DNA from: Actinomycetota bacterium
GTDB lineage: Bacteria > Actinomycetota > UBA4738 > JBBDHU01
DNA length: 64,000 nt
Direction of reading: 5' to 3'
Assembly (NCBI GenBank): GCA_040880705.1
Contig: JBBDHU010000001.1
Span: 315,573 to 379,572 of the forward strand
Below the pieces are notes generated by a model. It did no database searches, had not been told where the DNA came from, and saw only the letters and a list, made by a program, of their open reading frames with translations. Below are positions 24,931 through 49,989 of this stretch, piece by piece. A program made the position numbers and the translations under genes. The first letter of the stretch is position 1. Every line of letters begins with the position of its first letter.

Positions 24931-26148
24931 TCAGCCGCTGGGAGTTCGCTCCTCGATCTTCCAGGGTGCGCCGTATTCGTTCAACAGATCCAGGAACGGC
25001 AAGCTGTCGAACGCCTCCGGCCCGAGAACCCCGGCACCTTTCCAGGTTCCCGAAGCGATCAACTCTAGAGCCGCGGCCGGGTTGATGGCCGTTTGCCAAA
25101 CGACTGCCTGCACGCCGTCATTGGCCATCGTCTCTTCGTTGTCCGCTACTTGGTACAGGTACACCTCGCGCGGTTTTCCGTCCTTATCCGTTCCGCGAAC
25201 CCAGGTCCCGGCGCATGTCTTTCCGGTCATCTTGTCGCCGAGCGTGGCCGGATCGGGAAGCGTCGCCGCGACTACGTCGCGGGGGGAGACTTCCACATTG
25301 CCCACCTTGACGGCATCGGTCTTGTCCAAGCCGAGCTTGTGGAGCGTCTGGAGGACTTCGACGAACTCGTCGCCGAGCCCGTATTTGAACGTCACGCGGC
25401 CGGCGTCGACCCAGCGAGGGATCAACATGACTTCCTCGTGTTCGACCATGACGCACTTGATGGTTCCGATTCCTTCGGGGAACGAGAATTCCTCGGGCTC
25501 GGAGAAAGGTTCCGTCGTGAACCACCCTCGGTCCTTCTCCCACACGATCGGTGGGTTGAGGCATTCCTCGATCGTGGTCCAGATCGAGAAGGTAGGCGCG
25601 AAGTCGAAGCCTTCGACCTCGAGGTTCGCTCCGTCGCGCACCCCTATCTCTTCGATCGAGTCGAATAGATGGTCCGCCGCATAGCGAGCGAACACGTCCG
25701 ACATCCCCGGCTCGACCCCCATTCCGACGAGCGCAAGTTGTCCTCGCTGCTCCCACACGTCCGCGAGGTCCCATTGGTACTGGCCGAGCGGCCGGCCCAG
25801 CTCCTCGTAAGGCCTCTCGGCGTGCGGTTGCGAAAGCGACATCGCCATGTCGACGTAGGTCGCCCCGGCCTCCAGCGACGCGTCGAATATTGCCGGCACG
25901 AACCGGGGGTCTGCGGCATTGAGGACCGCGTCACAGCCGTGTTCCTTCGCGAAGTGAGCGATTGCCGGCGCGTCCGATGCGTCCAGGCGAGCCGCCGAGA
26001 AGCGGCCGTCGTCCAAACTCTCGGCCACCGAGCGCGCGCGAGCCTCGTTCAGGTCGGTCAGGATGGCCGATTCGAAGAAATCCCTGTGCCTGACGACAGC
26101 AGCGAACGCGGAGCCCACCCCTCCGGACCCGACCACGAGGATTCGCAT
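24931..26148 (-). CDS. Saccharopine-dehydrogenase-family NAD(P)-binding enzyme (carboxynorspermidine dehydrogenase / homospermidine-synthase-like)
   Basis: Start MRILVVGSGGVGSAFAAV (Rossmann). Sacchrp_dh-type body. The tracked 64-aa upstream extension was ignored. Confidence 0.7.
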   Translation of the reverse strand: MRILVVGSGGVGSAFAAVVRHRDFFESAILTDLNEARARSVAESLDDGRFSAARLDASDAPAIAHFAKEHGCDAVLNAADPRFVPAIFDASLEAGATYVDMAMSLSQPHAERPYEELGRPLGQYQWDLADVWEQRGQLALVGMGVEPGMSDVFARYAADHLFDSIEEIGVRDGANLEVEGFDFAPTFSIWTTIEECLNPPIVWEKDRGWFTTEPFSEPEEFSFPEGIGTIKCVMVEHEEVMLIPRWVDAGRVTFKYGLGDEFVEVLQTLHKLGLDKTDAVKVGNVEVSPRDVVAATLPDPATLGDKMTGKTCAGTWVRGTDKDGKPREVYLYQVADNEETMANDGVQAVVWQTAINPAAALELIASGTWKGAGVLGPEAFDSLPFLDLLNEYGAPWKIEERTPSG

Positions 26149-26177
26149 GACGGGGGAGTCTACGGGGCCCCGGCCGG

Positions 26178-26206
26178 TTGACCGGGGCCGGGGAGCCGCG
26201 TAAACT
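26178..26206 (+). promoter_or_regulatory. Putative sigma70-type promoter of the ilvB leader (TTGACC, 17-nt spacer, TAAACT)
   Basis: TTGACC 26178-26183, 17-nt spacer, TAAACT 26201-26206. The same geometry and -10 box occur upstream of the leuA leader. Confidence 0.4.
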
Positions 26207-26217
26207 TGCTGGTTACG

Positions 26218-26277
26218 ATGCAGAATTCGGGCATGTCTCGCACAGCAACGCGGCCGGCCCTGGTACTTATTCCGTAG
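26218..26277 (+). CDS. Putative ilvB leader peptide MQNSGMSRTATRPALVLIP (branched-chain codon run L-V-L-I before stop)
   Basis: 19-codon ORF starting about 12 nt after the -10 box. Ends with four consecutive Leu/Val/Ile codons. Lies between the promoter and an intrinsic terminator, upstream of ilvB. Confidence 0.45.
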   Translation: MQNSGMSRTATRPALVLIP

Positions 26278-26308
26278 GCGCGACGGGCTGCATCGGCCTG
26301 CGCGCCAA

Positions 26309-26332
26309 CCCCTCGATCCGAGGGGTTTTTTT
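26309..26332 (+). terminator. Intrinsic terminator / attenuator hairpin upstream of ilvB
   Basis: CCCCTCG atc CGAGGGG stem-loop followed by TTTTTTT (26326-26332), 50 nt before the ilvB RBS. Confidence 0.55.
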
Positions 26333-26385
26333 GTACCCAAGCGCGAGCACCGGTGAAACCGTCAAATGAGAGGAGGAGGCGCGTC

Positions 26386-28137
26386 ATGAAGCTCAGCGGA
26401 GCACAATCGTTGATCAAGTCGCTCGAGGAGCAGGGAGTCGACGTCGTATTCGGCGTGCCCGGAGGAGCCATCCTTCCCGCTTACGATCCGATACTGGACT
26501 CCTCGGTTCGCCACATCCTCTGCCGGCACGAGCAAGGCGCCGGCCACGCCGCTTCCGGCTATGCGTGGGCGACCGGAAAGGCCGGCGTTTGCATGGCCAC
26601 CTCCGGCCCCGGTGGTTGCAACCTGGTGACCGCGCTTACCGACGCCAAGATGGACTCGGTCCCGATGGTCGCGATCACCGGCCAGGTCCCGACGCCGGTC
26701 GTGGGCAACGACGCGTTCCAGGAAGCCGACATCACCGGCATCACGATGCCCGTGACCAAGCACAACATGCTCGTGACCGAAGTCGACGCCATTCCGAGCG
26801 CCATCAAGGAGGCGTTCTACATAGCCGAGACCGGCCGTCCCGGCCCGGTTCTCGTCGACATTCCGAAGGACGTTTTGCAGATGGAGGCCGAATTCCACTG
26901 GCCCGACTCCGTTGATCTGCCCGGCTACAAGCCGGTGACGAAGGGCAATCCCCGTCAGGTGAGGGAAGCCGTGAAGCTCATCTTGCAATCGGAGCGCCCG
27001 GTCCTTTACGTGGGCGGCGGGATCATCAAGTCCGACGGCTCGGAGGAGCTCTTCCGCCTGGCCACAGAGGGCCGGCTGCCCGTCGTCACTACGTTGATGG
27101 CCCGCGGCGCGTTCCCCGACTCGCACGAGTTGTGCGCCGGCATGCCCGGAATGCACGGCGGCTACACCGGCGTGACTTCCATGCAGAAAGCGGATCTACT
27201 GGTTTCGCTCGGCGCGCGCTTCGACGACCGGGTGACCGGCAAGCTCACCGAGTTCGCTCCCAACGCGAAGATCATCCACGTCGATGTCGATCCCGCCGAG
27301 ATCGGAAAGAACCGCAAGGCAGACGTCCCGATCGTCGGCGACGCGAAGATCGTCACCGGACAACTGGCCGACGAGCTTGCGAAGCAGCAGGCCGAGGCAG
27401 GCGGTCCGCCGGACCGTTCGCAGTGGCTCAATCTGCTCCAAGAGTGGAAGACGAAGTTCCCGTACACCTACGACCAGCCGGAGGACGGCCCGATCAAGCC
27501 GCAGTTCGTTACCGAGAAGCTGTACGAGGCGACGAAGGGCGACGGGATACTGGTCGCCGGCGTCGGCCAGCACCAGATGTGGGCGTCTCAGTACTGGAAG
27601 TTCGAGCGCCCGCGAACCTGGATCAACTCCGGCGGGCTGGGGACGATGGGTTATGCGGTTCCGGCCGCGATGGGCGCCAAGGTCGCGCGTCCCGATGAGC
27701 TGGTGGTGGCCATCGACGGCGACGGCTGCTTCCAGATGACCAACCAGGAACTGGCCACGATGACCACGGAGAACATCCCGGTGGTCATCGCGATCATGAA
27801 CAACGCCTACCTCGGGATGGTTCGCCAGTGGCAGGAGCTGTTCTACAACGAGCGCTATTCCCAGGTTTATCTGACCCACGACGTGCCCGACTACGTGCAG
27901 CTGGCCGAGGCATACGGATGCGTCGGCCTCAGAGCGGAAGCCCCCGAGGAGGTCGAGCCCGTGATCGACAAAGCGCTGTCCGTCGGCGACCGCACTGTCG
28001 TCATCGACTTCCGCTGTGACCAGGTGGAGATGGTCTTCCCGATGGTTCCGGCGGGAGCTTCGAACGACGACATCATCCTTGGCCCGGGCCAGGAAGCTCC
28101 CGAACCCGAGGATCCGAAGGCGGCTCCGCTCGCATGA
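26386..28137 (+). CDS. ilvB: Acetolactate synthase large (catalytic) subunit
   Basis: TPP enzyme signatures ([36 protein letters not shown]). Strong RBS GAGAGGAGGAGG. Start [19 protein letters not shown]. Confidence 0.9.
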
Positions 28138-28655
28138 GCCTTCACACGTTGTCCGTTCTCGTCGAGAACAGGCCCGGCGTGCTCGCGCGCGTGGCCGGGC
28201 TGTTCGCCGCGCGCGGGTTCAACATCCATTCGCTCGCCGTCGGCACGACCGAAACGCCCGACCTGTCGAGGATGACTATCGTCGTTGACGTGAAGACGAA
28301 GCCGCTCGAGCAGGTGGTCAAGCAGCTCAACAAGCTGATCAACGTGATCAAGGTGCTCGAGCTGGCCGCCGGCGAAGCGGTGGAGCGCGAACTCTCGATG
28401 ATCAAGGTGCGAACCGAAGGCGACGATCGCGCTCGCGTGATCGAGATCGTCGACATCTTCCGCGGGAGGATCGTCGGCGTGACGCATTCGACGATCACCG
28501 TCGAAGCGACCGGCACGCCGGAGAAGGTCGAGGCGCTGCTCGAACTCCTTTCGTCGTTCGGCGTCGTGGAGCTCGCGCGAACCGGGCGCGTCGCGCTTTC
28601 GCGGGAGGAGCGGGGGATCAACGAACGGGTGCTCAAAGCGGCACCGGACGACTGA
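28134..28655 (+). CDS. ilvN: Acetolactate synthase small (regulatory, ACT-domain) subunit
   Basis: [41 protein letters not shown] overlap with the ilvB stop. Confidence 0.9.
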
Positions 28656-28669
28656 GAGGGGAGTTCGGG

Positions 28670-29680
28670 ATGGCGACGATCTACTACGACAAGGATGTGG
28701 ACGGCTCGGCGCTGGACGGACAGAAGATCGCGGTGCTCGGTTACGGAAGCCAGGGGCACGCGCACGCCCTGAACCTTCAGGATTCCGGGCACGACGTCCG
28801 GGTCGGGCTCCGAAAGGACTCGAAGTCTTGGCCCGTCGCGGAAAAGGACGGGGTGAAGGTCCTCGAGACGCCGGATGCGGTGGCCGAGGCCGACGTCACC
28901 ATGGTTCTGCTTCCCGACACAGCGCAGTCCGCCGCTTACGACCGCGACATCGCGCCCAACCTTCAGGGCGGCAACATGCTGATGTTCGCGCACGGCTTCA
29001 ACATCCATTTCGAACAAGTGAAGCCGCCGGCGGAAATCGACGTCACGATGATCGCGCCGAAGGGACCCGGTCACTTGGTTCGCCGAACTTACACCGAGGG
29101 AATCGGCACGCCGGCTTTGCTTGCGGTGCACCAGGATTCGACTGGAAGCGGGAAGACGCGTGCCCTTGCGTACGCGCAGGGCATCGGCGCGACGCGGGCC
29201 GGCTTGATCGAGACGACTTTCAAGGAGGAGACCGAGACGGATCTCTTCGGCGAACAGTCTGTGCTTTGCGGAGGGCTTTCCTCACTGGTGCAGGCCGGGT
29301 TCGAAACGCTCGTCGCGGCCGGGTACCAGCCTGAGGTCGCGTACTTCGAGTGCCTTCACGAGGTGAAGCTGATCGTCGACCTGTTCTACGAGGGCGGGTT
29401 GAGCTACATGCGCTACTCGGTCTCGGACACCGCGGAGTACGGTGACTACACGCGCGGCCCGCGCGTCATCAACGACGAGACGCGTGCCGAGATGCGCCGG
29501 ATCCTCGACGAGATCCAGTCCGGTGAGTTCGCGAAGGAATGGGTCGGCGAGGCCAAGGACGGCTTCCCGCGCTTCCTGAAGATGCGTGCGGAGGCTCGGG
29601 AGACCCAGATCGAGGACGTGGGGGCGAAGCTGCGGGACATGATGCCTTGGCTCGGCGCGAAGAAGGCTCCGGACGCATAG
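28670..29680 (+). CDS. ilvC: Ketol-acid reductoisomerase
   Basis: [21 protein letters not shown], and conserved FAHGFNIHF and EQSVLCGG motifs. Confidence 0.9.
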
Positions 29681-29722: not shown

Positions 29723-30859
29723 TTACGTGAGGGACTGCACAACTCCGGTTAGGTCTGTGTAGCGAACTCTTGCCTTGCCGGCCAGGCCGCGATCAAAGGA
29801 GGGCTCGACTACGGGAGCGACGACGAAGCTCGCTCCCTCCCGGTAGGCCCGTCGGAAGGCATTCAGCCCGCCAAGCGACTCGCGCCCGTCGACGCGCCAT
29901 TTGCACTCGATCGCGATCGGCGGGCGGCCGCGCCGGTCGAGGACGAAGTCGACCTCGGCTCCTTTGGTTGTGCGCCAGTACTGGATCTTCCCGACGCCGG
30001 GCGTGGACTGCAGCTCGTTCAGGACGTAGTGCTCCCACAGGACGCCCGCGTCATCGGGACGCGAGGCCGTCCAGCCGTTCAGCACGCAAACGAAGCCGGT
30101 GTCGAACCCGTAGACCTTTGGGGCGCGAGTGAGTTCGTTCGACCGGTTGCGCGAGTACGGCGTGATCACGTGCGCGACTTTCGTGAGTTCCAGTACGGAC
30201 AGGTAGTTGGACACCGTTGGGCGGCTAGCCTCGATCGGACCGGCGAACGCGGTTGCCTCGAAGATCCCGCCGCTGCGCGCGAGGACCATCTCCACCAGAC
30301 GCTGGAACGAGCTGCGACGTTCCAGGCGAAAGAGTTCCTGGATGTCGCGGGACCAGTACGCGTCCAGCCATTCCTGGACGTCGGACTCGGGCAGGCCTGC
30401 GAGATAGGAGGCGGGGAGCCCTCCTCGCTCAAGACGCTGCTCCAACGAGCCGCCCGCCGCTGCGCGGTCGGCCTCGTTCATGGGCGTGAGCCACAGCTCC
30501 TCCTTTCGCCCGGCGAGGGAGTCCCGGAACCGGTCGGCCGCTTGGAGCGTCGATGAGCCCGTGGCCACTATGTGGGTGTCGGGGAAGTGGTCTGTCGCGA
30601 TCTTCAGCAACTCGGCCGGATCCGGGAGGCGGTGCACTTCGTCGAGCGCCAGCCGCTGGCCTCGGGTCGCGGCCAGGAACGACTCCGGATCGGCGAGAGC
30701 GCGCCGGACGCTGGGAAGTTCGCAGTCCAAATAGCGCACGTCCGGGAGGGACTTCACCAGTACCGTCTTGCCTGCTCGCCGGACTCCGGTGAGCCAGACG
30801 AGCGATCGGCGCTCCCAGGCATGCTCGATGCTATCGGCCCAGTGCTCCCTGCGGAACAT
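29723..30859 (-). CDS. AAA+ ATP-binding protein of the PF13173/DUF4143 family
   Basis: Walker A GVRRAGKT. Walker B-like hydrophobic stretch plus DE. C-terminal DUF4143-like region. 378 aa. Opposite strand to the flanking ilv/leu genes. Confidence 0.75.
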   Translation of the reverse strand: MFRREHWADSIEHAWERRSLVWLTGVRRAGKTVLVKSLPDVRYLDCELPSVRRALADPESFLAATRGQRLALDEVHRLPDPAELLKIATDHFPDTHIVATGSSTLQAADRFRDSLAGRKEELWLTPMNEADRAAAGGSLEQRLERGGLPASYLAGLPESDVQEWLDAYWSRDIQELFRLERRSSFQRLVEMVLARSGGIFEATAFAGPIEASRPTVSNYLSVLELTKVAHVITPYSRNRSNELTRAPKVYGFDTGFVCVLNGWTASRPDDAGVLWEHYVLNELQSTPGVGKIQYWRTTKGAEVDFVLDRRGRPPIAIECKWRVDGRESLGGLNAFRRAYREGASFVVAPVVEPSFDRGLAGKARVRYTDLTGVVQSLT

Positions 30860-30868
30860 GCAGGTAGT

Positions 30869-30914
30869 CTTGCATATTCTGCCCGGAATTGCAATCTGAG
30901 TTGCATATTATGCC
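30869..30914. repeat. AT-rich direct repeats CTTGCATATTCTGCC / GTTGCATATTATGCC flanking ATTGCAATCT, immediately upstream of the ATPase gene
   Basis: Two 14/15-nt near-identical direct repeats plus a related TTGCAAT core in a locally AT-rich patch. Confidence 0.3.
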
Positions 30915-31386
30915 AGGCCTTGCGGGCGGGCTTGGGGCTGATTAGCTTTGCCCGCGTGAGACTCCGTACGGTGGTCCGAAAAGTTGGACTGATGAGCAGG
31001 CCGGCGCTCTCGGTCCGGCTCGCCCCGGATTCGACTTGGGCCATTCGCTGGTGGCGTCGGCCACGAGCGGGGCGGTCGCAGCAACGCTCCTATTCATCGT
31101 CGTGTTGCGCGCGCGAGGGCTTGTGCGCACCGGCCCGGCCGTAGTCGCCGGCCTTTTCACACTCTTGCCCCTGCTCGCCCCGGGAATCGGTCCCCTCGCC
31201 GTCGCCGGGCTGCTCATCCTCGCCGTGGACGTGTGCATCCCGCGACCGCCTCTCCTGAGGCCGCCCCGGTCGGGAAGTGAGCGTGAGCGGCGGTACGGCG
31301 CTCCCTTAGTGACCTCGGAACGGTTTGCGGATACCCTGAGCGGCGGGTGGTTCCCGCCCGACCGACGAGCTTGGGGAGGGGAGCGG

Positions 31387-31881
31387 ATGTCCATCCCGCA
31401 GGAAGGGTATGCCCTCGGTCCGGACGACGGGGAGGCATTGTGGTTCAACGGTGGACTAGCCGTGCTGAAGGCGACGGCGGAGAGCACCGGTGGCCGCTTC
31501 GCGGCTGTGGACTTTCGCGTGCCGAAAGACTTCGCGTCACCCCTGCACATCCACCGCGCCGAGGACGAGTTCTTCGTCGTGCTCTCGGGCGAGGTGCGGG
31601 TGCGTCACGGCGACGAGGTCATCGAGGCGGAGGCCGGCTCCATCGTCTACGGCCCTCGCGATGTTCCGCACGGGTTCCGGGTCGACTCACCGGAGGCCCG
31701 CCTGCTGTTGTTCTTCGGTCCCTCCGGGGTCGAGGGGTTCTTCCGGGACGGCGGGAAGCCGGCCGGAGGCGTTCACCTGCCCCCGCCCGACGAACAGTTC
31801 GTGGACAAGGAGGTGCTCACGGAGATCGCCACGGGGTTCCAACAGGAGTTCATAGGACCACCCCTCCCCCCGAAGGAGTGA
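31387..31881 (+). CDS. Cupin-domain protein (cupin_2 / quercetin-dioxygenase-like)
   Basis: Start MSIPQEG after GGGAGGGGAG. Cupin motifs PLHIHRAEDEFFVVLSGEV and VYGPRDVPHGF. The tracked ORF (31036..) adds a 117-aa hydrophobic N-terminal extension that may or may not be real. Confidence 0.6.
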   Translation: MSIPQEGYALGPDDGEALWFNGGLAVLKATAESTGGRFAAVDFRVPKDFASPLHIHRAEDEFFVVLSGEVRVRHGDEVIEAEAGSIVYGPRDVPHGFRVDSPEARLLLFFGPSGVEGFFRDGGKPAGGVHLPPPDEQFVDKEVLTEIATGFQQEFIGPPLPPKE

Positions 31882-31888
31882 AACCGGG

Positions 31889-31916
31889 TTGACACATCGC
31901 CTGACCTGCGTAAACT
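31889..31916 (+). promoter_or_regulatory. Putative sigma70-type promoter of the leuA leader (TTGACA, 16-nt spacer, TAAACT)
   Basis: TTGACA 31889-31894, 16-nt spacer, TAAACT 31911-31916. Leader ATG follows 10 nt after the -10 box. Confidence 0.45.
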
Positions 31917-31926
31917 GACTTTTACC

Positions 31927-31980
31927 ATGCAGACCAAGGGCGACCAGACGCACGCGCACGGCCTGCTGCTTATCCGATAG
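31927..31980 (+). CDS. Putative leuA leader peptide MQTKGDQTHAHGLLLIR (three consecutive Leu codons then Ile)
   Basis: 17-codon ORF between the promoter and a terminator hairpin upstream of leuA. The control codons are Leu-rich. Confidence 0.5.
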   Translation: MQTKGDQTHAHGLLLIR

Positions 31981-32011
31981 GCGCACGCGGGCCTTGCCCT
32001 GCGCGCGCCGA

Positions 32012-32034
32012 CCCCTCCACGCGAGGGGTTTTTT
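32012..32034 (+). terminator. Intrinsic terminator / attenuator hairpin upstream of leuA
   Basis: CCCCTC cacgc GAGGGG followed by TTTTTT, 20 nt before the leuA GTG start. Confidence 0.55.
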
Positions 32035-32055: not shown

Positions 32056-33615
32056 GTGAGCGAGAACCAAGTGCGGTTCTTCGACACGACGCTGCGCGAC
32101 GGCGAACAGGCGCCGGGCATCGCGCTGACGCGTTCCGAGAAGGTCGAGATCGCGGAGCAGCTCGCGCGCCTCAACGTCGACATCATCGAGGCCGGCTTTG
32201 CCATATCGGGCGAGGGCGAGTTCGAGGCCATCCGCGAGATCGCGTCAAGTGTGCGAGGCCCCGTGATTTGCTCGCTCGCCCGCGTGACGCCGGGCGACAT
32301 CGACCGCGCTGCGGAGGCGCTGAAGGGCGCCGAGCGCTGGCGGATCCACACCTTCATATCCACGAGCGACATACACATGCAGGACATGTTGCGAATGTCG
32401 AACAACCAGGTGCTGGATTCGATCCGCGACGGCGTCAAGCACGCTGTCTCCTACACCGACGACGTCGAGTTCTCGGCTCAGGACGCCACGCGAACCGAGC
32501 TGGACTTCTTGCTGGAGTGCTTCAAGGTCGCCGTGGACGCGGGCGCGACAACGATCAACGTTCCCGACACGGTCGGCTATGCGATGCCGCACGAGTTCGG
32601 CGAGCTCGTTCGAGTAGTTCGTGAACAGACTCCCGACAACGTGATCATCTCGACTCATTGCCACAACGATCTCGGCCTGGCCGTGGCAAACGCGCTGGCC
32701 GGCGTCGTGAACGGTGCACGGCAGGTGGAGGTCGCCGTCAATGGGATCGGCGAGCGGGCCGGGAACTGCTCTTTGGAAGAGGTCGCGATGATCGTTCGGA
32801 CGCGCGGCAAGACGCTCGGCGTACGCCACAACCTCAAAACCAAGGAGATCATGCGAACCTCACGTCTTGTATCGATGACCACCGGCTACACGGTGCAGCA
32901 GAACAAGGCCGTGGTCGGCTCGTCGGCGTTCGCGCACGAATCGGGAATCCATCAGCACGGCGTGCTCTCCAACCGCGCCACCTACGAGATCATGGATCCG
33001 CTCGAGATCGGGTTGGAAGGCAACCGCATCGTTCTGGGCAAGCACTCGGGGCGCCACGCGTTCGACGACGCGCTTCACAAGATGGGCTACGACCTGGACA
33101 AGGACTCCTTGAACCACGTGTTCGGGCGGTTCAAGGAGCTGGCCGATCGCAAGATCGAGCTGACCGACCAGGACCTCGAGGCGATCGTGTCCGAGGAGGC
33201 CGGGAAGCGAAAGCGGGTTGCGGCAGCCGACGAATGGGTCATCGAGGAACTCGAGTTCACCGGCGGAACGGACCTGTCTCCCAAGGCGAAGGTTCGAATG
33301 CGCCGCGGCGAAGAAGTGATCGAGGACTCCGCGAAGGGCAACGGGCCGATCGATGCCGTGTGCACGGCGGTTCAAAGGGCCACGGGGGTCTTCGCGAAGC
33401 TCATCACGTTCAACGTTGCGGCCATCACCGGGGGCACCGACGCTCTCGGCGACGTGGTGGTGCAAGTCGAGATCGACGGCCGGCGGGTGACCGGCCGCGG
33501 AGTCTCGGTGGACACTGTGGAGGCATCCGCGCTCGCCTACCTGGCCGCGATCAACCGCTCGATTCAGGTCGCGGCGGCGGAGGACGACACCTCCTCTGCG
33601 GAAAAGACGCCGTGA
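32056..33615 (+). CDS. leuA: 2-isopropylmalate synthase
   Basis: GTG start after GGAGG. FDTTLRDGEQAPG HMGL-like TIM-barrel signature. HCHNDLGLAVAN. C-terminal LeuA dimerisation/regulatory domain. Confidence 0.9.
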   Translation: MSENQVRFFDTTLRDGEQAPGIALTRSEKVEIAEQLARLNVDIIEAGFAISGEGEFEAIREIASSVRGPVICSLARVTPGDIDRAAEALKGAERWRIHTFISTSDIHMQDMLRMSNNQVLDSIRDGVKHAVSYTDDVEFSAQDATRTELDFLLECFKVAVDAGATTINVPDTVGYAMPHEFGELVRVVREQTPDNVIISTHCHNDLGLAVANALAGVVNGARQVEVAVNGIGERAGNCSLEEVAMIVRTRGKTLGVRHNLKTKEIMRTSRLVSMTTGYTVQQNKAVVGSSAFAHESGIHQHGVLSNRATYEIMDPLEIGLEGNRIVLGKHSGRHAFDDALHKMGYDLDKDSLNHVFGRFKELADRKIELTDQDLEAIVSEEAGKRKRVAAADEWVIEELEFTGGTDLSPKAKVRMRRGEEVIEDSAKGNGPIDAVCTAVQRATGVFAKLITFNVAAITGGTDALGDVVVQVEIDGRRVTGRGVSVDTVEASALAYLAAINRSIQVAAAEDDTSSAEKTP

Positions 33616-43837: not shown

Positions 43838-44110
43838 GCGCCCACCCTAGTTCTACCCAACGACAGGTACGCCCGGCGCTGTTTTCGCAGCTCGACGAAG
43901 CCGCCGAGAGCGTTTGATATCCTGGACTCGGCATCAAGAGCACCCGGGAAAAGGCCGGGTGCGGCAACCTGGGACGGACACCCAAGGTGCCCTCCCGCGA
44001 CGGCGGGGATGCGGTCGCCGAAACGGCGGCAAGGAAGTGTCCTGAAGGCGAGGCCCGTTCTCCAAGGAGAGCGGGCTCATCGCATTACGGAACCGGCGCG
44101 GGTTGGTGGT

Positions 44111-47655: not shown

Positions 47656-49989
47656 ATGCCAGAGTTCACCGACGAGTTCACAGCTGCCGCTCCGAACCTT
47701 TCGCCGGACGAGGCTCGAGAGGTCGCCGAGCGTTACTTCGGCGTTAGCGGGCCGGCCCAAGCGCTCGACAGCGAACGCGATCAGAACTTCCGCATAACGA
47801 ACGAAAACGGCGAGTCGTTCGTCCTGAAGATTGCCAATCCGGCTGAGGACCCGGCGGTGGCCGAGATGCAGGTCGATGCCCTCCGGCATGTCGAGGGAAC
47901 CGATCCCGGTCTTCCGGTTCCGCGTGTGGTACCAACGACAGAGGGTGTGCCGATAGCCGTCGTGGAAACTCCTACGGGAGAGAAGTGCACGGCGCGAATG
48001 GTGACCTTCCTCGAAGGAGTCAACAATGACGAACCCGCCCTCGACCTTGCCGCCATCCGGGATATCGGAGTCCTCGGTGCGCGGCTGTCGCGTGCCCTGC
48101 GCGGGTTCTTTCATCCCGCGGCCGGCCGGCCCCTGGTGTGGGACATTCGCCGCGCCGGAGAGCTGGCGCCGAAGCTCGAAGAGATCGCGGATTCGAGGTG
48201 GCGGGAGCTCGTCGCCGGCGAATTGGATCGATTCGAGGAGGTCCGCCCTTCGATAGGTGGGTTGCGCGCGCAAGTAGTTCACAACGATCTTTACGCCGAC
48301 AACGTGCTGGTCGATGCCGACGACGAGCGCCGGGTCACCGGGATCATCGACTTCGGGGATCTGCTGCACGCGCCTCTCGTGTGCGATCTGGCCGTAACCG
48401 TGTCGGCCATGATGTGGGCCCGGCCCGATCCGTTCGCCGCTGCCGAAGCTGCGATCGGCGGCTTTGTCTCGCTCACTCCCTTGGAGCCCGACGAGGTCGA
48501 GCTGCTGCCCGACCTCATGGCGGCCAGGCTGGCCGCAACCGTGCTGATCGGTGCGTGGAGATCAAAGCTGCATCCCGAGAACGTCGACTACATCTCGGTC
48601 GGGGACGCGCGTGCCGCCGATCTCCTCACGCTGTTCGAGGAGATCGGCAGGCCCGAGCTTCGTCGGCGGATCGCGGAGATGGCCACGCGCCCCCCCGCGA
48701 AGCCTGCCGTCGTGCCCGACGAGGAACTGATCGAGCGCCGCAGGCGAGTACTCGGCCCGATGCTTCCGCTCTCGTACGACGAGCCGGTCCATCCGGTACG
48801 CGGCGAGGGGGTTTGGATCTACGACGCCTCGGGCCGTGCTTTCCTCGACGCGTACAACAACGTGCCGCAGGTCGGGCACGCGCATCCGCGCGTAGTCGAG
48901 GCTCTGACGAATCAGGCCCGCCTTATCAACACGAACACCCGTTATCTGCACGAGTCGATCGTCGAGCTGTCGGAGCGGCTCATAGCCACGATGCCCGAAG
49001 GGCTGGACACCTGCCTTTATTTGAATTCGGGAAGTGAGGCGAACGACATCGCGTGGCGGATGTCGGTGGACTTCACAGGAAACGAGGGTGCGATCGTGAC
49101 GGAGTTCGCGTATCACGGCGTGACGGTCGCCTCTGCGGGGCTTTCCCCGGAGGAGTGGCCTGAGGGAAAACCGGTGAACGTCTCAACGGTTCCTCCTCCG
49201 GACGGTTTCCGCGGAGAGCACAGATCGGGTGAATCCGGCTGGGCCGGGCGGTTCGCCGAGTATCTCGACGATGCGGTCGCGTCGTTGCACTCGGCACGAA
49301 TCGAGCCGGCCATGTGCCTGATGGACTCGTCGTTCGCGAGCGACGGGATCTTCTTCCCGCCCGGCGAATATCTCCAAGGCGTCGTTCAAAAGACCCACGA
49401 GGCGGGGGGGCTGTTCGTTGCGGACGAGGTGCAGGCGGGCTTCGGACGCACCGGCGAGATGTGGAGCTTCGCCGCATCGGGAATTTCGCCCGATTTCGTT
49501 GCGCTGGGCAAGCCCATGGGCGACGGTCATCCCGTCGCCGCTATCGTGACGCGGCGACAGATCGCGGAACGCTTCTCAGAGTCCTATCCGGAGTTCTTCA
49601 GCACCTTCGGCGGGAACACCGTTTCCTGCGCCGTCGCCCTGGCCGTCCTGGACGTACTGGAAGAAGAAGGCCTCATGGCGAACGCCGCAGAGGTCGGGTC
49701 CTATCTGATGGACGGACTCGAGGGCCTCAGTCACGGGCTGATCGGAGACATCCGGGGTTCGGGACTGATGATCGGGGTAGAACTCGTGCGAGATGCGGAC
49801 ACGCGTGAAGCGGCAACCGAGGAGACCGATGCCGTCGTGAACGCGATGCGAGCGAGGGGTGTCCTCATCGGAAGCACCGGCCCGGCGGGCAATGTACTCA
49901 AGATCCGTCCGCCGCTCCCGTTCTCACGCGCGAACTCCGACCAGCTGCTCGAGACTCTCGATTCGGTTCTCCAGACGGCCGCCGGCTGA
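47656..49989 (+). CDS. Fusion protein: N-terminal APH/hydroxylysine-kinase-like phosphotransferase domain plus C-terminal class-III aminotransferase-fold (phospho-lyase-like) domain
   Basis: N-half has the kinase catalytic motif VVHNDLYADNVLVD and IIDFGD. C-half has class-III aminotransferase signatures (GRAFLDAYNNVPQVGHAHP, ADEVQAGFGRTGEMW, LGKPMGDGHPVAA). 777 aa, single uninterrupted frame. Confidence 0.8.
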   Translation: MPEFTDEFTAAAPNLSPDEAREVAERYFGVSGPAQALDSERDQNFRITNENGESFVLKIANPAEDPAVAEMQVDALRHVEGTDPGLPVPRVVPTTEGVPIAVVETPTGEKCTARMVTFLEGVNNDEPALDLAAIRDIGVLGARLSRALRGFFHPAAGRPLVWDIRRAGELAPKLEEIADSRWRELVAGELDRFEEVRPSIGGLRAQVVHNDLYADNVLVDADDERRVTGIIDFGDLLHAPLVCDLAVTVSAMMWARPDPFAAAEAAIGGFVSLTPLEPDEVELLPDLMAARLAATVLIGAWRSKLHPENVDYISVGDARAADLLTLFEEIGRPELRRRIAEMATRPPAKPAVVPDEELIERRRRVLGPMLPLSYDEPVHPVRGEGVWIYDASGRAFLDAYNNVPQVGHAHPRVVEALTNQARLINTNTRYLHESIVELSERLIATMPEGLDTCLYLNSGSEANDIAWRMSVDFTGNEGAIVTEFAYHGVTVASAGLSPEEWPEGKPVNVSTVPPPDGFRGEHRSGESGWAGRFAEYLDDAVASLHSARIEPAMCLMDSSFASDGIFFPPGEYLQGVVQKTHEAGGLFVADEVQAGFGRTGEMWSFAASGISPDFVALGKPMGDGHPVAAIVTRRQIAERFSESYPEFFSTFGGNTVSCAVALAVLDVLEEEGLMANAAEVGSYLMDGLEGLSHGLIGDIRGSGLMIGVELVRDADTREAATEETDAVVNAMRARGVLIGSTGPAGNVLKIRPPLPFSRANSDQLLETLDSVLQTAAG

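Follow-up and report, generated by a model that had tools for sequence, protein, structure and literature searches.

The DNA analysed here (the window, a stretch of 64,000 nt from an Actinomycetota bacterium) carries a putative control module immediately ahead of its ilvBNC operon. Comparison with related loci confirms, at the level of sequence, that this module, a leader-peptide attenuator of ilvBNC, is real and conserved; the kind to which it belongs was known before. Its small ORF, its run of Ile, Leu or Val codons (ILV run), its terminator and its promoter, from which a first, sequence-only reading had proposed an attenuator, are conserved in about 70 related loci. It is probably a ribosome-mediated transcription attenuator that would set ilvBNC by the supply of charged Leu, Val and Ile tRNA. 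Since leader-peptide attenuators of ilvB are already known in Actinobacteria, the assignment of this type of gene regulation is in itself ordinary. What the analysis adds is the reach of the family and its design rules, a conserved hairpin between the leader ORF and the terminator, the absence from our folding models of an antiterminator that competes with the terminator, and a tentative proposal for how the two hairpins are coupled.

A leader-peptide module upstream of ilvBNC

The elements of the module and the operon that it precedes are as follows.

26178 to 26183, forward strand: -35 box TTGACC (direct reading and promoter scan)
26201 to 26206, forward strand: -10 box TAAACT, 17 nt past the -35 box and 11 nt ahead of the ATG
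26218 to 26277, forward strand: leader small ORF MQNSGMSRTATRPALVLIP-stop, 19 codons and TAG (ATG at 26218, TAG at 26275-26277; by translation)
26260 to 26271, forward strand: regulatory codons CTG GTA CTT ATT (Leu-Val-Leu-Ile), codons 15-18 of 19
26277 to 26306, forward strand: hairpin A, 30 nt, 13 bp, GC-rich, GGCGCGACGGGCUG CAU CGGCCUGCGCGCC (folding, conservation and covariation)
26307 to 26332, forward strand: intrinsic terminator AACCCCTCG-atc-CGAGGGGTT, a 9-bp stem-loop at 26307-26327 with T7 at 26326-26332 (terminator scan and folding)
26370 to 26379, forward strand: ilvB ribosome-binding site GAGGAGGAGG (direct reading; ilvB ATG at 26386)
26386 to 29680, forward strand: operon ilvBNC (ilvB 26386-28137, ilvN 28134-28655, ilvC 28670-29680)

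The promoter TTGACC-17-TAAACT and the leader ORF lie where the sequence-only reading had placed them, and its estimate of about 12 nt between the -10 box and the ATG comes to 11 nt when measured. The same is true of the terminator core (CCCCTCG at 26309-26315, loop ATC, CGAGGGG at 26319-26325) with its T7 tract, which was also found by the terminator scan, and of the ribosome-binding site for ilvB that had been described after it. The four consecutive branched-chain codons (LVLI) reported right before the leader stop are likewise present, with one sense codon between the run and the TAG. In a consensus scan, TTGACC-17-TAAACT was the sole sigma-70-like site within 5.5 kb, where 0.5 would be expected. 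The products of ilvB, ilvN and ilvC scored 934, 219 and 549 bits against their NCBIfam models, all above the curated cut-offs. The gene upstream (24931-26148, minus strand) is divergent from ilvB, so that the terminator ends no other gene. The MRYEFE small protein gave no match in Pfam.

The apparatus had been called complete on first reading, but one part of it was overlooked: the conserved hairpin A fills the stretch of about 30 nt that leads from the stop codon to the terminator. This hairpin spans from the last base of the stop codon (the G of TAG) to the edge of the terminator stem and starts 5 nt past the last sensor codon; in the window its 13-bp stem has a folding energy of -23 kcal/mol. 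The hairpin and the terminator adjoin each other, with no nucleotide in common. Together they fold to -38.9 kcal/mol (z = -6.5), and none of 200 shuffled sequences folded as well; we nevertheless regard the module as more than chance because it is conserved across loci, and not because of this single sequence.

Conservation of the module in related loci

A single IlvB scan of species-representative genomes yielded 80 related loci, the best of them 85% identical. All 80 come from metagenome-assembled genomes, nearly all labelled Actinomycetota, Actinomycetes or Acidimicrobiia and a few otherwise. In these loci we searched for a simple version of the module, defined as a short ORF ending in at least three Ile, Leu or Val codons together with a GC hairpin and a T-run. 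Besides the window, 67 of the 80 loci had it, giving 68 leaders with small ORFs of 9-28 codons. A covariance model with the 23 closest sequences as its seed picked up most of the loci that the simple search had missed, and nearly all 80 carry the module; matches outside the seed reached E-values down to 5e-12. An extra gene of about 107 codons lies between the attenuator and ilvB in 23 relatives (L002-L023 and L048).

The frame of the small ORF, the ILV run near its stop, GTA and the spacing from promoter to ATG are kept in the 68 leaders, and the rest of the peptide varies. An ILV run of 3-6 codons was present in every one of them (68/68), followed in 55 by one codon and the stop. Hairpin A was also present in 68/68 leaders, always with a gap of 0-5 nt to the terminator stem; it was 24-42 nt long, and its stability ranged from -11.6 to -32.8 kcal/mol with folding begun where the ILV run ends. 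The distance from the ILV run to hairpin A had a mode of 5 nt (34/68) and was 4-6 nt in 52/68. Three leaders (L030, L035 and L039) have a longer, four-codon tail after the run, and in these too hairpin A begins 4-6 nt from the run. Since its position remains constant despite the longer tail, hairpin A tracks the sensor codons rather than the stop.

Of 55 distinct sequences, 53 have the third base of the stop codon paired, and the partner switches with that base: UAG is matched by C, and UGA or UAA by U. The stop codon and its pairing partner thus covary, as in an RNA structure that depends on the position of the ribosome, and hairpin A would be the ribosome-sensitive element of the leader. Over 56 sequences aligned with the model, standard pairs occupied 97.9% of the cells, compared with 80.5% after shuffling and no more than 66.6% when the partners were slid; the alignment was fitted to the model and so favours pairing, and the slid controls were nonetheless far lower. 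Compensatory changes were observed in 15 of the 16 pairs, with both helices covarying, and the terminator showed them in all 7 of its 7 modelled pairs.

A search of Rfam 15 gave no match at E-values up to 10 in positions 25000-27500 of the window, and none at permissive E-values on the leaders of two relatives (L004 and L028) or of M. tuberculosis (L081). The only Rfam match elsewhere in the window is a SAM-I/IV riboswitch. The module reaches deep, uncultured lineages of Actinomycetota and Acidimicrobiia without an Rfam family, and the 56-sequence structural alignment could seed one.

Support for a near-leaderless leader mRNA

No Shine-Dalgarno sequence was observed in the window ahead of the leader ATG, in the 11-nt gap to the -10 box, and in the 65 loci compared none would fit inside the gap between the -10 box and the ATG. 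In view of this, translation of the mini-gene would have to be of the leaderless type. The upstream region of the close relatives reads TTGACA, 16-17 nt, TA[CG]ACT, exactly 9 nt, ATG; TTGACA stands at the equivalent position in 22 close relatives, and TTGnnn in most of the distant ones. The gap from the -10 box to the ATG was exactly 9 nt in 45 of the 65 loci and in 22 of the 23 close ones, and an A at the third base upstream of the ATG is common among the ilvB leaders.

The constant 9-nt gap and the lack of a Shine-Dalgarno sequence lend comparative support to the earlier suggestion that the leader is leaderless or near-leaderless. It is well supported by this comparison that translation would begin at or near the 5' end of the ilvB mRNA, with a predicted 5' UTR of a few nt ahead of the small ORF. 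The window is one of two loci with a gap of 11 nt, and given 11 nt in place of 9 it may have a slightly longer 5' UTR than its relatives.

Rare codons in the ILV run

Codon usage was determined from 15,050 codons in 32 long ORFs of the window. GTA accounts for 6.2% of Val codons, CTT for 13% of Leu codons and ATT for 7.8% of Ile codons; all three are rare, and they make up three of the four sensor codons. Within the close set, the stretch GTACTTAT, which includes the GTA and the CTT, is invariant in 23 sequences. In IlvB itself, by comparison, Leu or Val is invariant in 44 columns (24 sequences), and in every one of these the codon varies. The 45 distant leaders each have at least one GTA in the ILV run; of the 94 Val codons in these leaders 64 are GTA, as against about 6% in the genes of the window. 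The conservation of GTA and CTT and the excess of GTA, set against the codon drift in IlvB, argue for selection on codon identity, and the simplest reading of this is sensing via a scarce tRNA. The leaders of the comparative set follow common design rules, namely a leaderless-type start at a set distance between promoter and ATG, a rare GTA in every member, and a hairpin at what would be the edge of the stalled ribosome.

A second copy before leuA

The covariance model also identified a paralogous copy of the attenuator further downstream in the window.

31889 to 32034, forward strand: paralogous attenuator before leuA (covariance-model match, 40 bits, E = 3e-9, outside the seed)

Its promoter reads TTGACA-16-TAAACT-10-ATG, and its small ORF, MQTKGDQTHAHGLLLIR-stop (31927-31980), has the sensor codons CTG CTG CTT ATC (LLLI). 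The hairpin (31980-32009) again begins at the G of TAG and is followed by a terminator at 32010-32034, the gap being given as 2 nt. This leader can be aligned with the ilvB leader over its whole length. The ORF downstream of the LLLI copy (32056-33615) encodes 2-isopropylmalate synthase, the product of leuA. Two unrelated genes (29723-30859 on the minus strand, and 31036-31881) separate ilvC from leuA in the window; in the metagenomic relatives leuA directly follows ilvC. None of the metagenomic relatives compared has a leuA leader of its own, and the LLLI copy was found in the window only. With Leu in place of Val, the leuA copy is an apparent natural example of codon-set specificity. A third match to the model, of 16 bits at 48019-48116, was rejected as spurious, as it lacks a U-run and falls within what looks like coding sequence.

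Folding models and the search for an antiterminator

Antiterminator tests were performed on the 68 leaders, with the E. coli trp leader, its sequence confirmed at 100% identity, as positive control. Equilibrium folding with the ribosome masked at four positions revealed no switch, the terminator pair probability being at least 0.88 in every state in 68/68 leaders. Co-transcriptional folding of the 5' part, with the 3' arm of the terminator not yet made, gave no sequestration of the 5' arm. With the whole 5' part included, this test did not show the trp antiterminator clearly either, because of a spurious long-range helix, and it was replaced by one in which only the RNA downstream of the ribosome is folded. 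In the replacement test the 5' arm of the trp terminator was paired at 0.71 with the ribosome stalled at Trp and at 0.05 with the ribosome at the stop codon. In the 68 ilvB leaders the corresponding values were 0.15-0.22 in the stalled states and 0.36 at the stop, and only 2 of the 68 exceeded 0.5 in any stalled state. In the leaders of M. tuberculosis and M. kansasii no competing helix appeared when the ribosome was placed at the stop or over the sensor codons, and the M. tuberculosis leader retained its terminator under ordinary folding.

Taken together, the four folding tests, which include a working trp control, lead us to conclude that a classical (trp-type), mutually exclusive antiterminator that shares a strand with the terminator is absent from the modelled ilvB leaders. 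The sequence-only reading had called for a fold of this region in search of alternative antiterminator and terminator helices and had named the lack of such a pairing as grounds for refuting it; no helix competing with the terminator emerged in any modelled state of the ribosome. Four candidate pairings were discarded as well. The pairing of leader CCUCG with the 3' arm of the terminator was dropped by eye, the CTC being CTG in the window and in L001; leader GUAC with the GUACCC past the U-run, and the 3' strand of hairpin A with the 3' arm of the terminator, were dropped by eye as unconserved or wrong in sign; and the AUG of an AGAUG spacer was dropped as missing from the window.

A classical attenuator would need hairpin A to antiterminate either through a small overlap, in which 2-3 further bp join the last codon or the stop to the first bases of the terminator stem, or through a pairing that is invisible to nearest-neighbour folding. 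With the ribosome at the first sensor codon, hairpin A of the window does gain a G-C and a U-A pair onto the AAC of the terminator. The free M. kansasii leader, an exception among the foldings, pairs its LVVL sensor codons with the 5' arm of the terminator. In addition, the authors of the M. tuberculosis study state that antiterminator and terminator are mutually exclusive (Nat Microbiol 2026, PMC13236596), which folding of their leader sequence did not reproduce. The extension in the window, however, amounts to 2 bp across an A-A mismatch and, judged by eye, is unconserved in the close relatives. The terminator probabilities in all 68 leaders and the weak pairing of their 5' arm next to the trp control also stand against it, and we consider a classical attenuator unlikely. 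The absence of an antiterminator from the models bears on work that ties rifampicin-resistant polymerase to ilvB1 attenuation.

Proposed mechanism

We propose that transcription would start a few nt before the ATG and that the 19-codon mini-gene would be read in leaderless fashion. A ribosome waiting on any of the four sensor codons would halt just short of hairpin A, and an unstarved ribosome would proceed to the last sense codon and the stop, unwinding the base of hairpin A. Under starvation, hairpin A would thus stay intact and transcription would read through; with sufficient supply, hairpin A would be melted and transcription would terminate at CCCCUCG/CGAGGGG-U7. We infer this direction of the response, in which a stall on the sensor codons would lead to read-through, from M. 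tuberculosis and from the logic of the pathway. The 2005 work of Takyar and colleagues on the ribosomal helicase is said to indicate that a helix can persist from about +11/+12 relative to the first base of the P site. With the last sensor codon in the A site, the start of hairpin A falls at about +11/+12, so that a stall would spare the hairpin and the next translocation would start to melt it.

Since hairpin A does no more than adjoin the terminator (0-5 nt), without overlap, we propose, tentatively and as an uncertain part of the scheme, that the two are coupled by adjacency and that hairpin A blocks termination by its position. The folded hairpin, probably with a ribosome stalled at its base, would deprive the lowest pairs of the terminator of the space they need in the RNA exit channel of the polymerase. 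Folding brings the two ends of a hairpin next to each other, so that a ribosome stalled there would in effect stand 0-5 nt from the foot of the terminator stem. After the ribosome has moved on and hairpin A is open, at least 20 flexible nt would lie between ribosome and polymerase, and the terminator could form. We know of no citable precedent for such adjacency (steric) coupling. In the usual drawings of classical attenuators, the his leader among them, hairpins stand side by side and termination still occurs, which counts against hairpin A alone being inhibitory. It is a doubtful conjecture that Actinomycetota ilvB attenuators at large, that of M. tuberculosis included, work without a strand-sharing antiterminator and with a ribosome-gated hairpin that blocks by position until the ribosome, advancing by one or two codons, melts it. 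If this is true, attenuation by positional blocking would differ in kind from the textbook model of alternative helices.

Hairpin A might instead be mainly a pause hairpin for the polymerase, with read-through decided elsewhere, by the stalled ribosome or by a protein factor. It is a stable hairpin formed immediately ahead of the terminator, a ribosome at the stop codon must melt it, and the 1:2 pause hairpin of the trp leader, which is released by the arriving ribosome, speaks for such a role. Pausing alone, however, would mean termination in both conditions and leave induction unexplained. Known pause hairpins are also much shorter than the stem of hairpin A, and the constant gap of 0-5 nt to the terminator would be unnecessary for pausing; it appears quite improbable that this is its main role. 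A leader that senses no ribosome at all (a riboswitch, a T-box, a protein-binding leader, or a chance small ORF with a constitutive terminator) can be dismissed almost entirely, for although ppGpp riboswitches control ilvB in some Firmicutes (Narunsky et al. 2023, PMC10272879) and the terminator count in the 5.5-kb scan did not exceed chance, Rfam 15 matches none of the leaders of the window, its relatives and M. tuberculosis, the frame, ILV run, GTA and promoter-ATG spacing are conserved over 68 leaders, and with a divergent upstream gene the terminator serves no other gene.

Comparison with known systems

The ribosome-mediated attenuator proposed here for ilvBNC shares with the enterobacterial trp, ilvBN, ilvGMEDA and his attenuators the late position of the regulatory codons, a readout of the position of the ribosome, and a terminator before the first gene. 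In the enterobacterial systems the antiterminator shares a strand with the terminator, as was reproduced for trp, whereas the family of the window appears to have no such antiterminator. Enterobacterial attenuator leaders also have Shine-Dalgarno sequences, unlike the leader of the window.

The leaderless polycysteine small ORFs of mycobacteria (Shell 2015, PMC4633059; Canestrari 2020) are likewise ORFs at the 5' end that are rich in the amino acid their operon produces. As described by Seliverstov et al. 2005 (PMC1262725), these are without obvious terminators, whereas the element in the window has a canonical one. The same paper predicts, for Corynebacterium, Mycobacterium and Streptomyces, leader peptides of ilvB that are accompanied by terminators. 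It calls the mode of regulation unclear and mentions codon substitutions in the S. coelicolor ilvB leader that were without effect, a result counted against the attenuator explanation. The candidates it describes have a short ORF with an Ile, Val and Leu run and then a hairpin with a U-run before ilvB, as in the window; their ORFs overlap the terminator hairpin, whereas the ORF of the window ends 30 nt before it, with a separate hairpin between. The sequence-only reading had referred to attenuation of ilvBNC as established in Corynebacterium and Streptomyces. For Streptomyces this is inaccurate, and for Corynebacterium it agrees with PMC10272879.

The ilvB-II motif of Corynebacterium (PMC10272879) consists of two stem-loops, P1 and P2, of which P2 is the terminator, and in this it is like the pair of hairpins in the window. 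It has a BCAA-rich upstream ORF (about 15-17 codons) before ilvB and was regulated in reporter assays. In ilvB-II most of P1 lies within the upstream ORF, and the P1 loop and the 3' shoulder of P2 pair as the antiterminator. In the window, by contrast, the ORF reaches only to the base of hairpin A, and the loop of this hairpin is not predicted to pair with the terminator, so that the element is not of the ilvB-II type.

The ilvB1NC attenuator of M. tuberculosis (PMC13236596) responds to branched-chain amino acids, is induced by inhibition of acetolactate synthase, and gives a terminated transcript of about 120 nt. Its published coordinates place the U-tract's end at +126 and the gene start at +168, with a leader of 166 nt. 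We obtained the sequence of a leader from the M. tuberculosis complex (L081) by a protein search and contig look-up. It reads TTGACT-18-TACCGT-8-ATG and encodes LVVI as CTC GTA GTA ATT, with a hairpin 6 nt past the run and a terminator 1 nt past the hairpin. From the published numbers and this sequence, we infer that the mapped transcription start lies 0-1 nt before the ATG of the mini-gene. Covariance model R1 matched L081 at 1041-1159, over its full length and in the right place, as a weak match (15.1 bits, E = 0.23).

The M. tuberculosis mini-gene continues for 6 codons past the sensor codons and has its stop inside the hairpin, whereas that of the window continues for one codon and its hairpin begins from the stop; the M. 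tuberculosis terminator also has an extra inner stem compared with that of the window. The M. tuberculosis element has been tested experimentally, and that of the window is known from its sequence alone. The two share a promoter beside the mini-gene, four sensor codons that include GTA, the GC-rich hairpin 5-6 nt past the run, the terminator 0-1 nt past the hairpin, the U-run and the gene order ilvB-ilvN-ilvC, and the window has the M. tuberculosis-type order and spacing, for which the M. kansasii leader was also compared, with its ATG within about 10 nt of the -10 box. The layout that was first read as an ilvBNC attenuator is thus that of M. tuberculosis ilvB1, where replacement of LVVI by AAAA abolished induction (PMC13236596).

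A second attenuator, upstream of leuA

Using the covariance model of the two-hairpin ilvB leader module, a paralogous second attenuator was identified upstream of leuA (40 bits, E = 3e-9). In metagenomic relatives (loci L083-L162), leuA directly follows ilvC and forms with it a single ilvBNC-leuA operon; in the window the two are separated by two unrelated genes (29723-31881). The features of this region are:

Between ilvC and leuA, minus strand: AAA_14/DUF4143 ATPase gene
Between ilvC and leuA: cupin-domain protein gene
31889-32034: second attenuator
32056-33615: leuA

The promoter is of the same type as that of the ilvB attenuator, and the small ORF, MQTKGDQTHAHGLLLIR, ends in the codons LLLI, as against LVLI at ilvB. 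The first base of the hairpin lies within the stop codon, and the terminator begins 2 nt beyond the hairpin. At this split ilvC/leuA arrangement, leuA has acquired its own copy of the attenuator.

Other elements in the window

A weak third match to the same model (48019-48116, plus strand; 16 bits, E = 0.01-0.1) lacks a U-run and sits within an apparent coding sequence; it is probably spurious. The window also carries:

43926-44046, plus strand: SAM-I/IV riboswitch aptamer (49.1 bits; Rfam gathering threshold 41.1)

TAG was the most frequent stop codon, closing half of the 32 long ORFs (16 TAG, 12 TGA, 4 TAA). G+C content of the genome is 64%; at about this value TGA usually prevails.

An additional gene before ilvB in relatives

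In 23 relatives (L002-L023 and L048) the attenuator is separated from ilvB by an additional gene of about 107 codons, whose 3' end overlaps the start of ilvB. Its product gave no Pfam match, and the gene is missing in the window and in the related locus L001. One example is:

L009 2181-2504: product MRYEFERDG...RRRDWTPWEFERA

Comparison with the ilvB1 leader

Combining the published ilvB1 leader coordinates of M. tuberculosis (166-nt leader, +126, +168) with the sequence of the M. tuberculosis complex locus L081 (1021-1037), the mapped start was placed 0-1 nt upstream of the ATG of the upstream ORF. Judged by position, this upstream ORF is leaderless; a 2023 preprint classes it among 'isolated', not leaderless, upstream ORFs.
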